Below, in pieces: positions 544 through 58,614 of a stretch of 64,000 nucleotides of DNA (positions within the stretch are counted from its first letter, which is position 1; the number at the start of each line of letters is the position of its first letter). The translations under genes were made by a program, and so were the position numbers. The stretch lies in the IMG/VR virus record IMGVR_UViG_3300011113_000784, positions 1 through 64,000 of that record; one strand, written 5' to 3'. The DNA comes from a virus. Below the pieces are notes generated by a model. It was not told where the DNA came from, made no database searches, and saw nothing but the letters and a program-made list of their open reading frames with translations.

Positions 544-566
544 TTATCAAGTGAGGACACGCTTCT
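544..566 (-). repeat. Solitary degenerate CRISPR repeat handle AGAAGCGTGTCCTCACTTGATAA
   Basis: 17/23 identity to the 3' 23 nt of the array repeat; 3' stem arm weakened. Confidence 0.55.
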
Positions 567-592
567 ATTACAATTAGAGTGGCGTGTCCTCA
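552..592. promoter_or_regulatory. Intergenic inverted repeat (TGAGGACACGC / GCGTGTCCTCA) overlapping a CRISPR-repeat-like 23-mer
   Basis: 11-bp perfect arms at 552-562 and 582-592 between the two tube genes. Confidence 0.7.
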
Positions 593-1514: not shown

Positions 1515-1536
1515 GTGTCATATGGGACACGCTTCT
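1515..1536 (-). repeat. Solitary CRISPR repeat handle AGAAGCGTGTCCCATATGACAC in a 5' UTR
   Basis: 19 of 22 nt match an array repeat with one gap; intact GTGTC/GACAC stem; 2 nt before the SD. Confidence 0.75.
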
Positions 1537-12428: not shown

Positions 12429-12608
12429 GTGTCATCTGGGGACACATTTCTGAGTCATTGCTAGATTGCGGCTGCTTTTTCTGGCGACTCCAACATGATC
12501 GTGTCAACTGGGGACACATTTCTGAGTCATTGCTAGACTAATCTGTCCAGACTCACGACCAACATACGACTGTGTCAGCTGGGGACACAATTCTGAGTCA
12601 TTGCTAGA
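12429..12608 (-). CRISPR. CRISPR mini-array: 3 x 37-nt repeats, 2 spacers, type V-I (Cas12i)-like; no cas genes adjacent
   Basis: Repeats at 12429-12465, 12501-12537, 12572-12608 = TCTAGCAATGACTCAGAA(A/T)TGTGTCCCCAG(A/T/C)TGACAC on minus; unique spacers of 35 and 34 nt; 3' GTGTC/GACAC stem. Confidence 0.92.
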
Positions 12609-21983: not shown

Positions 21984-22006
21984 GTGTCAGCTGGGGACAC
22001 ATTTAC
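21984..22006 (-). repeat. Solitary CRISPR repeat handle between convergent genes
   Basis: GTAAATGTGTCCCCAGCTGACAC, 21/23 to the array consensus. Confidence 0.88.
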
Positions 22007-28417: not shown

Positions 28418-29152
28418 ATGTTTGAAGTAGAATTTAAATATTATAAACAAAAAGAAGATCTCGATTATAACAAAGATGAGCCACTTGTTTTTAGAAACAA
28501 GTTTGGCAAAATCGATGAAGATTATCCAAAAGAAAAATTGGCTAAATATATTTTAACCCAATTAGCTCGGCGTGATATTTTTATCTACGATGTTGATGTT
28601 TATGAATTTACAAAAAAGAAAGTGAATTTTAAACTTGGTAAAAATGGTTTTTCAATTGCTGGAAGTAAATTTAACAATTCTGATTTAGCTGAAGATTGCA
28701 ATCTTGAAAATGATGTTCCAGCAGAGCCACAAGAAATTCCTCATGCGCCCGGTCCTCATTCACCAAAACCACCGATTCAGCAACCTCAACAAAACAAATT
28801 TGTTAATTTGGCAAATAGGATAAACGACACAAAGACAAGAAAGATTATGCGAAAAGTGGCGTTTGTTCCGCCCTTAAGGATGGATAAAACTAAGTTTCCT
28901 TATAAGTTTACATTAAATAAAGTATATCCAGTATATTCTGAAAGATATGTTACAAATGGTGTTGGCATGTATATTACAACTGTTGATGATAATGATAATG
29001 TGTTAGAAGTTATTGATGAATATTTTGTTCCCGCCAATGCTGCGTTAGAATTTGAGAATGAGATGGATGCTGGTAAGCGTGGAAACAATGATTTGTTAAA
29101 CTGGCAAGGTGATAGATCAACAGGACCGATGATTAATTTAAGGGGAAAATAA
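28418..29152 (+). CDS. Hypothetical protein
   Basis: 244-aa ORF in operon. Confidence 0.7.
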   Translation: MFEVEFKYYKQKEDLDYNKDEPLVFRNKFGKIDEDYPKEKLAKYILTQLARRDIFIYDVDVYEFTKKKVNFKLGKNGFSIAGSKFNNSDLAEDCNLENDVPAEPQEIPHAPGPHSPKPPIQQPQQNKFVNLANRINDTKTRKIMRKVAFVPPLRMDKTKFPYKFTLNKVYPVYSERYVTNGVGMYITTVDDNDNVLEVIDEYFVPANAALEFENEMDAGKRGNNDLLNWQGDRSTGPMINLRGK

Positions 29153-29156
29153 AAAA

Positions 29157-31756: not shown

Positions 31757-31769
31757 TTGAGGATACAAC

Positions 31770-32237
31770 ATGACACCGTCTTATGTCATGCTTAAATGCC
31801 CGGATGGCAAAAAAATAGTGACAAGTTACAACAACTTGTTGTCATTATCTGAGTTTATTGACTGTTTCAACATTAAGGTTGAAAGTTGCAAGACTGACGA
31901 CGCAGACAATGCAGTCAGTCTTGAGGAGATCGCAAATATATTTTGCGACTCCAATTATGTGAAAAATTCTACTATGATTACTGAGGAGACGACAGAATCT
32001 CCTGATAAAAATATGACAAAAGATAAATCTTCTCGTTATATTCGTAACAAAATCAAAGAAACTATTCTTGAGAAGAAGGAAATTTCTTTTTCTCAAATTT
32101 GCAAGATGTTTTCTAGTTTTAATTATTCTATTCCGGGTTTAAACAATAATTTTAAATTGGCAAGACAAGAGCTTGAATCAGATGGCTATAACTGCGTTCG
32201 TTTAAAAAGAGGTGTCTATAGATTGGAAGGCAGATAA
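31770..32237 (+). CDS. Hypothetical protein, possible C-terminal winged helix
   Basis: Ends ..VRLKRGVYRL. Confidence 0.55.
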   Translation: MTPSYVMLKCPDGKKIVTSYNNLLSLSEFIDCFNIKVESCKTDDADNAVSLEEIANIFCDSNYVKNSTMITEETTESPDKNMTKDKSSRYIRNKIKETILEKKEISFSQICKMFSSFNYSIPGLNNNFKLARQELESDGYNCVRLKRGVYRLEGR

Positions 32238-36238: not shown

Positions 36239-36862
36239 ATGTCAGCAGAAAAGTTTTACACAGGAAAATTGGTAAAGCCCAAGCTGATTAAGTTCACCCA
36301 TGAAAATTCAGAAAAAATTGCTTATAAAGTTTGTATAGAAGCAGATGAATATAATCTTTGTGTAGAAAGTGCCCGTAATATGTGGGCTAATAAGAAAAAA
36401 GGATCATATGGTAAAGGATTGGTTAATACCGAAGATGATCCCTATCGTACAGAAAGAACGGGAAAACTTGGAGAAATGGCTTTTTCTAAGATATTTCAAT
36501 TTCCTGTAGATCTCACCTATCGTGAAGGTGGAGATGACCAAGACTTTCTTTGTAATGGAAAGAAGATCAACATCAAAACCAGTACGAAGAAACCTTGGTA
36601 TGCCGCTGGCTTGGTCACTGCTGGACATTATCGAGGACAAGACTTTGTGCCTTTAGAAATCAAACATGATTATTATGTGTTTGGTTATATCGAAATGGAA
36701 GACAAAAAAGCCAACATCGCTTCAGTTGTGTTTGTTGGAGGTTGTGATAAAAACACATTAATCAATAGAGAAATTAAAAGAGCGATTAAAGGGCATCACA
36801 TGAACTATCAGATTTCTTATTCTGAATTAACAGACATTAATAAGATTTCTTTTAATCAGTAG
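36239..36862 (+). CDS. Putative PD-(D/E)XK nuclease-fold protein
   Basis: GKLGEMAF..GGDDQDF..INIKTS. Confidence 0.5.
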   Translation: MSAEKFYTGKLVKPKLIKFTHENSEKIAYKVCIEADEYNLCVESARNMWANKKKGSYGKGLVNTEDDPYRTERTGKLGEMAFSKIFQFPVDLTYREGGDDQDFLCNGKKINIKTSTKKPWYAAGLVTAGHYRGQDFVPLEIKHDYYVFGYIEMEDKKANIASVVFVGGCDKNTLINREIKRAIKGHHMNYQISYSELTDINKISFNQ

Positions 36863-37091
36863 GTTTTCCGAAAAAGTTTTCTGGATATTCCATTTTAACT
36901 ACTTTTTCGCCTTTGACTTCTTCTTCCCAAAAGCGTACCTGCTCCACAGGTACGCCTAGTTCAATATAATGACAATTGTCGTTTGCGTTAACTGGCATGT
37001 TAACATTTTTGCCTTCATATAATATGTTTACTTTGCAAGTTTTATTGTTTTTGTCGAAACAAAAACAATTTTTGCATTTTTTGTTATTCAT
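36852..37091 (-). CDS. Small Cys-rich protein
   Basis: CKNCFCF..CKV..NCH. Confidence 0.65.
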   Translation of the reverse strand: MNNKKCKNCFCFDKNNKTCKVNILYEGKNVNMPVNANDNCHYIELGVPVEQVRFWEEEVKGEKVVKMEYPENFFGKPTD

Positions 37092-37096
37092 GACTA

Positions 37097-37119
37097 GTGT
37101 AGTCTGAGTACACGCTTCT
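37097..37119 (-). repeat. Solitary CRISPR repeat handle AGAAGCGTGTACTCAGACTACAC in a 5' UTR
   Basis: 17/23 identity, same length, compensatory C-G to A-T stem pair; 5 nt before ATG 37091. Confidence 0.75.
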
Positions 37120-37167
37120 CATTTATTTATGATAGTGTGTCAAAGTAAAAAGTCAAAGGGTTTCAAC

Positions 37168-43619: not shown

Positions 43620-43642
43620 AGTAATGTGTGCCTAGATCATAC
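43620..43642 (+). repeat. Solitary CRISPR repeat handle AGTAATGTGTGCCTAGATCATAC
   Basis: 18/23 to the repeat at 12429; compensatory C-G to G-C pair plus a G-U wobble keep the 5-bp stem. Confidence 0.65.
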
Positions 43643-56142: not shown

Positions 56143-58614
56143 ATGAATACCATATCTGTCGAAGATTTTAATAAAATTATCAACAATCAATTCAAGAAAT
56201 TTCCTTTTCATGATGATCCACGATATCAATTCAGGCTTAGATATGAGCTTTTAGAAATAGAAACACAAAATTGTTGTGATTATTTTATAGATTTGGTCAA
56301 ACAAAAGAAAAAATTTCTTAATGAAAACAATTTACTTGTCCCAGTGTTACTGGGAATTTGCAATGAATTCAATATTGATGAAATGCCCAAAACTAAAACA
56401 AATGAATTCCCCGATGTTGATATCGATTTCTTGGCAGATGTTCGTGATTATCTAAAAAACGAATATGCTCCCAATCAATATAAAGCTGAAAATACATGCT
56501 CTATTGGTACTTACGGCAGATATGCTTTAAAGAGCGCCATGATTGATATGGCAAGAATCTATGGATATGACCGACAAGAAGTTTTAAATATTACAACAAA
56601 TTTGAGAATGAAAGACGAAGATGGAGATGAATTGACATATGAAGAAGCTTTAGAAATGTATCCTGAGTTGAAATCTTATATGGACAAGTATCCAGAATTA
56701 GCATTAGCTGTTCAAAAGCTTATTCACAGAGTACGCAATACCGGCAAACATGCTGGCGGTGTAATTGTTGCCAAGGACGAGATTAATAAGTTTGTTCCAT
56801 TGATGAAAACCACAGGTGGTGACCAGCTTGTATCACAGTTTGTAGAAGGTTTGGCTACACAAGAATTAGGACCAATAGGTCTGGTAAAATTCGACTTGCT
56901 TGTTGTGTCTGCGTTAGAGCAGACGGGTCACGCAGTAAAAATGATAAAGGATAGGCATAATATCAAATTAATTTCAGGTGACAATCACGATTGGGACAAC
57001 ACAGATTATTTGAATGACCCCAAGGCTATTGCGAATGCCAACGAAGCAGATTTGATTGGCATATTCCAATATGATAGCAATGGGATTAGAGAAGTTGTAA
57101 AAGCTTCTGGTATTGATAGTTTTGATGACTTGGTTGCGATTGTCAGTTTGTATCGTCCCGGTCCATTGAATGCAGAAATGGATCAAGTGTTCATCAGAAG
57201 AAAAACAGGACAAGAAGAATATACAATCAATCCCGTGCTTGAACCTGTTCTTAAATCAACTTATGGAATTATTATCTACCAAGAACAAGTAATGAGGATT
57301 CTGAATGTTGTTGGCAAAATCCCTCTGAAAGATTGCGAAACAATCAGAAAGGCTATTTCTAAAAAGAAGATATCAAGTTTCATCAAGTATAAAGAACAAT
57401 TCATTGAAAACGGTGTTAATGTTCTTGGAATTTCCAGAGAAGAAGTCGCTGATATATTTCAGAATATTGAATTCTTCTCAGCTTATGGTTTTAACTTAAG
57501 TCATGCCACCGCTTATACTTACATCAGCAGCCGACAATTATATTTGAAAACTTATTATCCATTAGAATTCTTTACTGCTTTGTTGATGTTGGAAGGTAGT
57601 GAAGAGAAGAAGCGCATTTATATTACAGATGCTCAAAATCATGGAATTGAAGTTCGGGCAGTTGACCTAAACACAAGCAAAGCCAATTTCTCGATACAAG
57701 ATAATGCCATTTACATTGGTTTTGGCAATATTAAAGGTATCGGAATGGATACTGCCAATAAGATTGTAGCCTTGCAACCGTTTAAAGACATAGATGATTT
57801 TCTTCGTCGGTTTGGCACAGACTCTAGTGTTTTGAAAGCACTGATTCCGTTGAAGGTCTTTGGAGAAGACACAAAGAGAGCTTACAACTATTGGCAAGCT
57901 TTTATGGCTAAGAACAAAAAGGTTGTTGACAAAAATAAGAGATCTAATAAGTCTTATCTCGATCTGAAGAAGACAGTGTTATATCTGTTGCCTGAAAAGT
58001 ATAGGAATTTGGAATTGTCTGAAGAATTGTTTTCAATTCTTAAATCAATTAATGATTCTGCTGATGTGAACAAGCTGCATAAGAAATGGGTGAGGATGAA
58101 TTCTAAAGAAGAAGCAAAGATTGAAATTTCTTATGAAGACTTTGATGATGATGACATTGTCATCGAAGATAAAGAGTTGCTGCTTGAATTAAATGATATT
58201 TGTGTGGCTGAGAGAAAGTATTATGGGTTTCAGTTTACTTGCAGACTAAGAATGCTAAAGATGTACAGTGAGAACTGTACATTTGACCGTGTTATTAATT
58301 CTCATGCCTTGGGTGCGACTAAGCACATGGTTCAAATTGAAATATTGGATGTCAATAAAAGATATTCAAAATCTGGTAAGCCCTATTGCCAGTTAGTTGC
58401 TATGGATAGTAATTTCAGAATTGAGAGGATTAATGTGTGGGAAGATGATTACGCTATATTCAAACATTTGCTTGAGGTTAACAAATGTTTGTCAATGCAG
58501 GTCAAACCACCTTCTAATGGATTTTCTACTTATAGCCTAAATTCTCCTCCTAAAAACAGGAGATATTTACTTCCATCATCAGAGATGGATTTCAGAATTG
58601 TTTTAATGGACTAG
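56143..58614 (+). CDS. dnaE: DNA polymerase III alpha catalytic part
   Basis: PDVDIDF, GKHAGGV, GLVKFDLL, GIFQ, LYRPGP, TYGIIIYQEQVM, YGFNLSHATAY, IKGIG, OB-like end. Confidence 0.93.
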   Translation: MNTISVEDFNKIINNQFKKFPFHDDPRYQFRLRYELLEIETQNCCDYFIDLVKQKKKFLNENNLLVPVLLGICNEFNIDEMPKTKTNEFPDVDIDFLADVRDYLKNEYAPNQYKAENTCSIGTYGRYALKSAMIDMARIYGYDRQEVLNITTNLRMKDEDGDELTYEEALEMYPELKSYMDKYPELALAVQKLIHRVRNTGKHAGGVIVAKDEINKFVPLMKTTGGDQLVSQFVEGLATQELGPIGLVKFDLLVVSALEQTGHAVKMIKDRHNIKLISGDNHDWDNTDYLNDPKAIANANEADLIGIFQYDSNGIREVVKASGIDSFDDLVAIVSLYRPGPLNAEMDQVFIRRKTGQEEYTINPVLEPVLKSTYGIIIYQEQVMRILNVVGKIPLKDCETIRKAISKKKISSFIKYKEQFIENGVNVLGISREEVADIFQNIEFFSAYGFNLSHATAYTYISSRQLYLKTYYPLEFFTALLMLEGSEEKKRIYITDAQNHGIEVRAVDLNTSKANFSIQDNAIYIGFGNIKGIGMDTANKIVALQPFKDIDDFLRRFGTDSSVLKALIPLKVFGEDTKRAYNYWQAFMAKNKKVVDKNKRSNKSYLDLKKTVLYLLPEKYRNLELSEELFSILKSINDSADVNKLHKKWVRMNSKEEAKIEISYEDFDDDDIVIEDKELLLELNDICVAERKYYGFQFTCRLRMLKMYSENCTFDRVINSHALGATKHMVQIEILDVNKRYSKSGKPYCQLVAMDSNFRIERINVWEDDYAIFKHLLEVNKCLSMQVKPPSNGFSTYSLNSPPKNRRYLLPSSEMDFRIVLMD

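Follow-up and report, generated by a model that had tools for sequence, protein, structure and literature searches.

Viruses are known to carry solitary repeat units (SRUs) immediately behind promoters (Camara-Wilpert et al. 2023, PMC10651486, who cite an earlier bioinformatic description of them). The element described here resembles SRUs and the RNA anti-CRISPRs (Racrs) in that it is a single viral repeat-like unit, lies outside an array without an adjacent cas gene, and follows a predicted promoter. As for SRUs and Racrs, binding by Cas proteins is presumed. Unlike them, it retains only the 23-nt processed part of the repeat and belongs to the leader of a protein-coding gene, whose ATG follows after 5 nt, rather than forming a stand-alone small-RNA gene. 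Also unlike them, it occurs in a phage that carries its own evolving array with the same repeat, and at least seven dispersed copies that are rapidly gained and lost. For a phage that relies on this repeat itself, the benefit of inhibiting CRISPR immunity, as Racrs do, would be less obvious.

The unit itself resembles the crRNA handle of type V-I (Cas12i) systems. The processed repeat of Cas12i2 is 23 nt long and consists of a 6-nt tail and a stem-loop; A(-23) is essential for pre-crRNA processing, and G(-22) and A(-21) are important (PMC7567891). Cas12i1 likewise has a 23-nt repeat, with a stem G(-17):C(-1) (PMC8190297), and phage-encoded Cas12i has been published for huge phages (PMC7162821). 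The element has the same 23-nt form, with a 6-nt tail starting in AGA, a stem-loop that ends at -1, and the “spacer” position directly on its 3' side. Unlike the type V-I handle, its inner pair is A-U rather than C-G, a gene follows instead of an acquired spacer, and there is no effector gene on the available DNA.

CreA/CreR, long tracrRNA, scaRNA, and crlRNAs are crRNA-like regulators. In such systems, degenerate repeat-derived RNAs load Cas effectors for regulation, not for immunity (e.g., bioRxiv 10.1101/2024.12.27.630466), and a similar role is conceivable for the element; unlike these regulators, which act in trans, on DNA promoters, and with partial guides, the handle here is fused in cis to a message. 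A resemblance to the PeSL cassettes of T4-type phages is only a lead. The PeSL reports (PMC2839356, PMC4122927) describe a short intergenic sigma70-type early promoter plus stem-loop that varies among close relatives. Here, in contrast, the stem-loop is a CRISPR repeat handle, and gene content is unchanged by the cassette.

The window analyzed here is a stretch of 64,000 nt, the first 64 kb of a 111-kb virus record that is about 23% complete by CheckV. The solitary handle is located near 37.1 kb, and the features that bear on it are the following:

37097..37119, minus strand: solitary handle copy of 23 nt, with an AGAAGC tail, a GTGTA/TACAC 5-bp stem, and a CTCAGAC loop

37129..37156, minus strand: sigma70-like promoter, TTGACT-16 nt-TATCAT (consensus scan, 10/12 matches)

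37092..37167, minus strand: phage-specific intergenic stretch of 76 nt, which is 15-17 nt in 13 orthologous loci

36852..37091, minus strand: small Cys-rich gene of 79 aa, with 13 orthologues at 79-90% amino acid identity

37168..37815, plus strand: divergent dNMP-kinase-like gene (phrog_139, E 1e-28; Pfam DNMK weak)

12429..12608, minus strand: CRISPR mini-array (three 37-nt repeats, two spacers), whose repeat family is the source of the handle

The handle copy keeps the layout of the array repeat. On the minus strand, the order at 37.1 kb is TATCAT-AAATAAATG-AGAAGC-GTGTA-CTCAGAC-TACAC-TAGTC-ATG. ATAAATA occupies 37130-37124, the tail 37119-37114, the two stem arms 37113-37109 and 37101-37097, the loop 37108-37102, TAGTC 37096-37092, and the start codon 37091-37089. 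The array repeat of the window ends in AGAA[A/T]T-GTGTC-CCCAGNT-GACAC, which has the identical 6+5+7+5 layout. Against this array handle, the 37097 copy is identical at 17/23 positions (16/22 specified positions); two of its six mismatches fall in the loop and two in the tail. All five pairs are kept, and at the inner pair both partners are altered, from C-G to A-T. The 5' AGA is intact at 37119-37117, the positions of A(-23), G(-22), and A(-21) as defined for Cas12i2. The hairpin ends 5 nt upstream of the ATG, and there is no GGAG, GAGG, or AGGA between the two. A first-pass annotation of this DNA had described the same order of motifs from ATAAATA to ATG, the architecture shared with the array repeat, the double change at the inner pair, the absence of an SD, and a small Cys-rich gene behind the handle. 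The minus-strand letters, the comparison with the repeat at 12429-12608, and the orthologues of the gene bear this description out. ATAAATA was also considered as a T4-type late promoter and rejected, TATAAATA not being enriched (5 found, 6.9 expected).

The pattern of substitution indicates that the 79-aa Cys-rich ORF is a real, conserved gene. Differences among its orthologues fall mainly at third codon positions (e.g., 8/2/30). It has no match in Pfam, PHROG, or PADLOC, and searches of Pfam, PHROGs, and PADLOC gave no function for the small genes that adjoin handles or for the 286-aa gene beside the array. Transcription from the promoter upstream is predicted to start near 37122, 2-4 nt before the handle; the promoter itself ends 9 nt before the handle. 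It is a consensus match in AT-rich DNA, where 5 matches are found in 600 nt vs. 1.8 expected. No terminator was found between the handle and the ATG of the conserved ORF, which follows after 5 nt, and the unit is not a stand-alone small non-coding RNA of the Racr kind.

The 37097 element is, as judged from its sequence, a true derivative of the CRISPR repeat handle. The motif GTGTA-N7-TACAC occurs once, vs. 0.01 expected. The 10-mer AGAAGCGTGT occurs exactly three times, at the 37097 site and two others, and six sites are found when one mismatch is allowed, vs. 1.9 expected. We built a covariance model (CM) from the array repeats and three other copies, with the 37097 site left out. This model ranks the site as the best non-seed match in the window (19.0 bits, rough E 0.009). 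A structure-blind scan of the 111-kb record, allowing up to six mismatches to the array handle, returned eight non-array look-alikes vs. 0.3 in shuffles. Six of these are intergenic: 544(-), 21984(-), 37097(-), 43620(+), G000:67655(+), and G000:79912(+). The look-alikes at 56652 and 101397 lie inside long ORFs, have broken stems, and are probably chance matches.

Comparison with orthologous loci points to a recent cassette insertion. In 13/13 orthologous loci, the two divergent start codons are separated by 15-17 nt, e.g., catGACTATGTTATAGTCATG. The closest relative (G001) shares about 89% nucleotide identity with this phage, and its BLAST alignment breaks at window positions 37084-37167, where there are 84 nt here vs. 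23 nt in L005. The promoter-handle cassette of ~65-76 nt between the two start codons is thus found in this phage only. Its right border is uncertain over about 8-13 nt, as an alignment of GACTACACTAGTC to the native palindrome is also possible. Its left end puts AAGGG 7 nt before the ATG of the dNMP-kinase-like gene.

A sister cassette is present in the closest relative at a different site, which is empty in this window at about 29.15 kb. It is about 68% alike and reads TTGACT-16-TAAAAT-5 nt-AGAAGCGTGTCCCCAGATGACAC, so that the promoter-then-handle layout is shared. Presence/absence polymorphism therefore runs both ways, the 37.1-kb cassette being filled here and empty in G001. At a third site, the relative has a bare handle insertion of 23-25 nt, again empty in this window. 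Both cassettes (window 37151-37167 and L308:1459-1480) border at their left end on the CAT belonging to a divergent gene, and the opposite strand carries AAGGG or AAGGAG 7 nt before the ATG of that neighbor. The cassette may therefore also supply a ribosome-binding site to the neighboring gene.

The orthologues themselves carry a near-perfect palindrome, TTCATGACTAT-GTT-ATAGTCATGAA (L006:2981-3005, and the same place in L005-L017). It runs from one of the divergent start codons across the 15-nt gap to the other, and as RNA it is predicted to form a hairpin of up to -11.9 kcal/mol in which the AUG is sequestered. The palindrome might serve both genes as an operator or as a hairpin that acts on translation.

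Solitary handles occur elsewhere in the record, and their sites turn over rapidly. There are seven solitary copies plus the array, the further copies being:

1515..1536, minus strand: solitary handle AGAAGC GTGTC CCATAT GACAC, 2 nt before the SD AGGAG and the ATG of an 89-aa gene

21984..22006, minus strand: near-perfect solitary handle; compared with six empty relatives, exactly 23 nt are inserted, and the 4 nt ATCA are duplicated

43620..43642, plus strand: solitary handle AGTAAT GTGTG CCTAGAT CATAC (CM 17.6 bits, E 0.02)

544..566, minus strand: degenerate handle AGAAGCGTGTCCTCACTTGATAA, its 5' part being the 3' arm of a 10-bp hairpin at 552-590 (CM 11.8 bits)

G000:67655-67677 (L301:3655-3677), outside the window, plus strand: solitary handle AGAAAC ATGTC CTCAGAT GACAT (CM 27.4 bits)

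G000:79912, plus strand: doubtful handle, a match of the structure-blind scan

The 1515 copy, which has a 6-nt loop, was found separately from the structure-blind scan. It is the only site common to the window and the closest relative, where the orthologous sequence (L138:3365-3387) is AGAATT GTGTC TATAGCT GACAC. The stem is identical, while tail and loop differ, and identity between the two phages is 75% at the site vs. 93-95% in the flanks. This suggests either that the handle was replaced by another copy or that its unpaired parts evolve fast. In the 32 kb of the closest relative there are three good solitary copies and one weak one, plus an array. We found no handles in the records of eight more distant relatives (444 kb), and these show no array. 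We conclude that solitary handles move, do not persist for long, and are restricted to the array-carrying lineage. For the 43.6-kb and 79.9-kb sites, no relatives were found.

The array of the closest relative occupies the same site as that of the window and has about 12 repeats (L018:5075-5830), with mostly different spacers. Both arrays sit after a ribonucleotide reductase gene and have one spacer and a terminal segment in common. The spacers are much GC-richer than the phage, and one repeat in the array of the relative has an internal deletion.

Other folded elements lie beside some of these copies. At window 552-590, a perfect 10-bp hairpin, GAGGACACGC-N19-GCGTGTCCTC (-21.8 kcal/mol, z -5.7), has as its 3' arm the first half of an AGAAGC-type handle. 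It is kept in the closest relative, is absent from relatives at 58% identity, and shows about 70% identity over 37 nt with 37105-37141. The G000:67655 copy lies 21 nt before a TTG-started 69-aa ORF, and its outermost pair is changed on both sides, from G-C to A-U. At G000:79912, an alternative hairpin of 7 bp is preferred, which makes this match a doubtful handle. Just upstream of it and of a 97-aa zinc-ribbon-like gene, G000:79736-79894 (L301:15736-15894) comprises, in this order, a sigma70-like promoter, a long hairpin of very high stability, and a tRNA-like element. This last element matches Rfam RF00005 with 48 bits, while ARAGORN finds none; the fold of 79735-79960 has a z of -5.7.

The repeat family was not recovered from databases. 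No Rfam family was found in the window or at the 37097 site. A scan of viral contigs with AGAAGCGTGT-N7-9-ACAC gave at least 119 unrelated single matches, about a quarter of them self-complementary, as by chance. In metagenomes, the 17-mer stem-loop returned no arrays, and its 100 matches were single and attributable to chance. GenBank phages hold no match to the 37.1-kb locus or to the array of the relative, the repeat is in none of 185,579 GTDB species genomes, and a literature search by repeat sequence gave nothing usable.

The solitary copies, as a family, keep their stem through compensatory and wobble changes. Among the five diverged intergenic copies, which were found structure-blind, 24/25 pairs are kept (P about 1.6e-4), a signal that weakens if the two coding-region matches are taken as genuine. 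Both partners of a pair have changed in three independent cases: C-G to A-U at 37097, C-G to G-C at 43620, where the inner pair is flipped and one G-U pair occurs, and G-C to A-U at G000:67655. G-U wobbles are also seen. The evidence is good for the family and thin for the 37097 site by itself. At 37097 alone, random placement of the six changes keeps all five pairs in 6.6% of cases (P = 0.066), and the hairpin by itself (-2.3 kcal/mol, z = 0) is no better than shuffles. The first-pass annotation had called this site the strongest single sign that the dispersed copies act as RNA structures. The site does not have that weight; the broader idea finds support in the stems of the family.

A second fold competes with the handle at this site:

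37092..37104, minus strand: competing palindrome GACTA-CAC-TAGTC, next to the ATG and overlapping the 3' arm of the handle

In the predicted leader of 62 nt (37123-37062, minus strand), the pair probability of the handle is about 0.04 vs. 0.86 for the competing hairpin, GACUA-CAC-UAGUC, which extends over the AUG. The orthologues have its counterpart in the strong palindrome that lies across both start codons. Of the six changes that separate the copy from the array handle, T18C and G19T give rise to the GACTA arm of the competitor, and a third, C11A, restores pairing in the handle. The sequence seems to have been shaped to allow both folds.

Our preferred explanation, to which we give a probability of roughly 55%, is that the 37.1-kb element is a young, mobile solitary repeat unit that gives a transcript the 5' end of a Cas12i-type crRNA. 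In the cassette, a sigma70-like promoter stands directly before 23 nt that copy the type V-I-like (Cas12i-type) crRNA handle of the phage itself. The message of the Cys-rich gene would then start 2-4 nt before the handle and thus be crRNA-like, with the first 20-30 nt of the message in the spacer position and the AUG at +6 to +8. A Cas12i-type effector, from the unsequenced part of the phage or from the host, would dock on the handle and trim the 5' end at A37119. The bound effector would hold the start region, which would yield a crRNA-like RNA and probably block translation of the bound copies. No Cas12i gene or Cas12-sized gene was found on the 111 kb available, so that we can only infer effector binding. 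This DNA has only two ORFs of more than 900 aa, and their products look like fibre proteins. Against this explanation also stand the weak free hairpin, its low occupancy in the predicted leader, and the absence of the repeat from the GTDB species genomes.

Alternatively, the solitary handle might turn the adjacent native sequence into a crRNA spacer, forming a self-marking guide or homing-like device. We consider this doubtful. Under such a model, the empty alleles of related phages carry 5'-TTN and would be cut, which would keep competitors out or allow the cassette to copy itself into the cut site through repair; the DNA of the carrier would be safe because the handle (..CAC) occupies the PAM position. 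The 3 nt before the post-handle sequence in the empty alleles are TTA at the 37.1-kb site (13/13 orthologues), followed by TAGTCATGAATAAG, and TTG both at the 21984 site (six relatives) and, in this window, at the G001-6503 site. TTN is thus seen in three of four testable empty alleles (TT frequency 0.127-0.135, P about 0.007-0.009, post hoc), and a 5'-TTC PAM was used in the published structure work on Cas12i2 (PMC7567891). There are only four such sites, however, one of which fails (ATT at the G001-9170 site), and the TTA at 37.1 kb belongs to the conserved palindrome. The guide matches the relative L006 with one mismatch in 31 nt, but the closest relative differs from it at position 5 and at positions 9-13. 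Rapid turnover of handle sites between two phages about 90% alike fits a homing-like device, as does the use of virus-borne arrays in inter-viral conflict, known from work cited in PMC10651486.

No targets of the system were found. The spacers match nothing in the loci examined except the arrays themselves, and the GTDB species genomes contain no target of the shared spacer. The PAM of the system cannot be derived because no spacer target was found; this, together with the lack of an effector gene on the 111 kb, argues against a guide. The handle-adjacent “guides” also have no secondary targets within the 111 kb. The TTN pattern is a lead that two models would predict: a guide against handle-less relatives, or entry of handles at CRISPR-targeted protospacers.

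We also compared the 20-nt “spacer positions” of three empty alleles (L005:1170-1200, window 31757-31790, and window 29125-29153). Between the window and the closest relative, 14/60 of these positions differ vs. about 10% overall. The excess could reflect escape from targeting, or weaker constraint beside indels.

About equally improbable is a cassette with no Cas role at all, that is, a mobile promoter or regulatory cassette with a decaying remnant of a handle, in which the palindrome close to the start codon is what matters. The competing hairpin dominates the predicted fold (86% vs. 4%) and matches the palindrome of the orthologues (up to -11.9 kcal/mol). No other copy is as diverged as the one at 37097 (6 mismatches, 19 bits), and three of its four loop-and-stem differences are explicable without handle function, since two of them (T18C and G19T) make the GACTA arm and the third (C11A) is the pairing partner of G19T. 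Against this, C11A is needed only if the handle stem matters, the AGA and the exact 6+5+7+5 spacing are kept, and the stem is conserved across the family (P about 1.6e-4). At both cassette sites, the AAGGG or AAGGAG that precedes the ATG of the divergent gene by 7 nt would suit a regulatory cassette, and the promoter/stem-loop cassettes of the PeSL type have been described as mobile intergenic modules (PMC2839356, PMC4122927). Where the array is absent, however, no cassettes are found.

A conserved cis-acting RNA structure standing in place of the SD of the gene, as the first-pass annotation proposed, is highly improbable. The hairpin does end 5 nt before the ATG, and an SD is absent. Neither a handle nor an SD was found, however, in any of the 13 orthologous loci (0/13), and the orthologues having neither, nothing was replaced. 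Lack of an SD is also common in this genome, where an SD-like 4-mer precedes only 37/79 long ORFs. In the alignment of orthologous UTRs, the check that the annotation itself had named, the stem is present in 0/13 leaders; read literally, this goes against the proposal, and it arises because the whole element is an insertion specific to the window.

Least probable of all is a chance resemblance of the 37097 site to the repeat: a single 23-mer query is expected to find about 0.3 sites with up to six mismatches per genome, but the exact 10-mer recurs at two other sites, the stem is fully paired with the right spacing, the site is intergenic and at a predicted transcript start, and a sister cassette exists in the closest relative.

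The occurrence of TTN at three of four empty alleles raises the question of whether solitary repeats make guides against relatives without them. If they do, phage populations would contain a natural, “gene-drive-like” element that works through CRISPR-based exclusion or homing. Under our preferred explanation, a solitary repeat unit that lends its transcript a crRNA-like 5' end, docking of a Cas12i-type effector would mean that the phage uses the RNA-binding site of a CRISPR nuclease as a portable module, outside ordinary immunity. The filled and empty alleles of phages about 90% alike provide a natural experiment on how such a module spreads.
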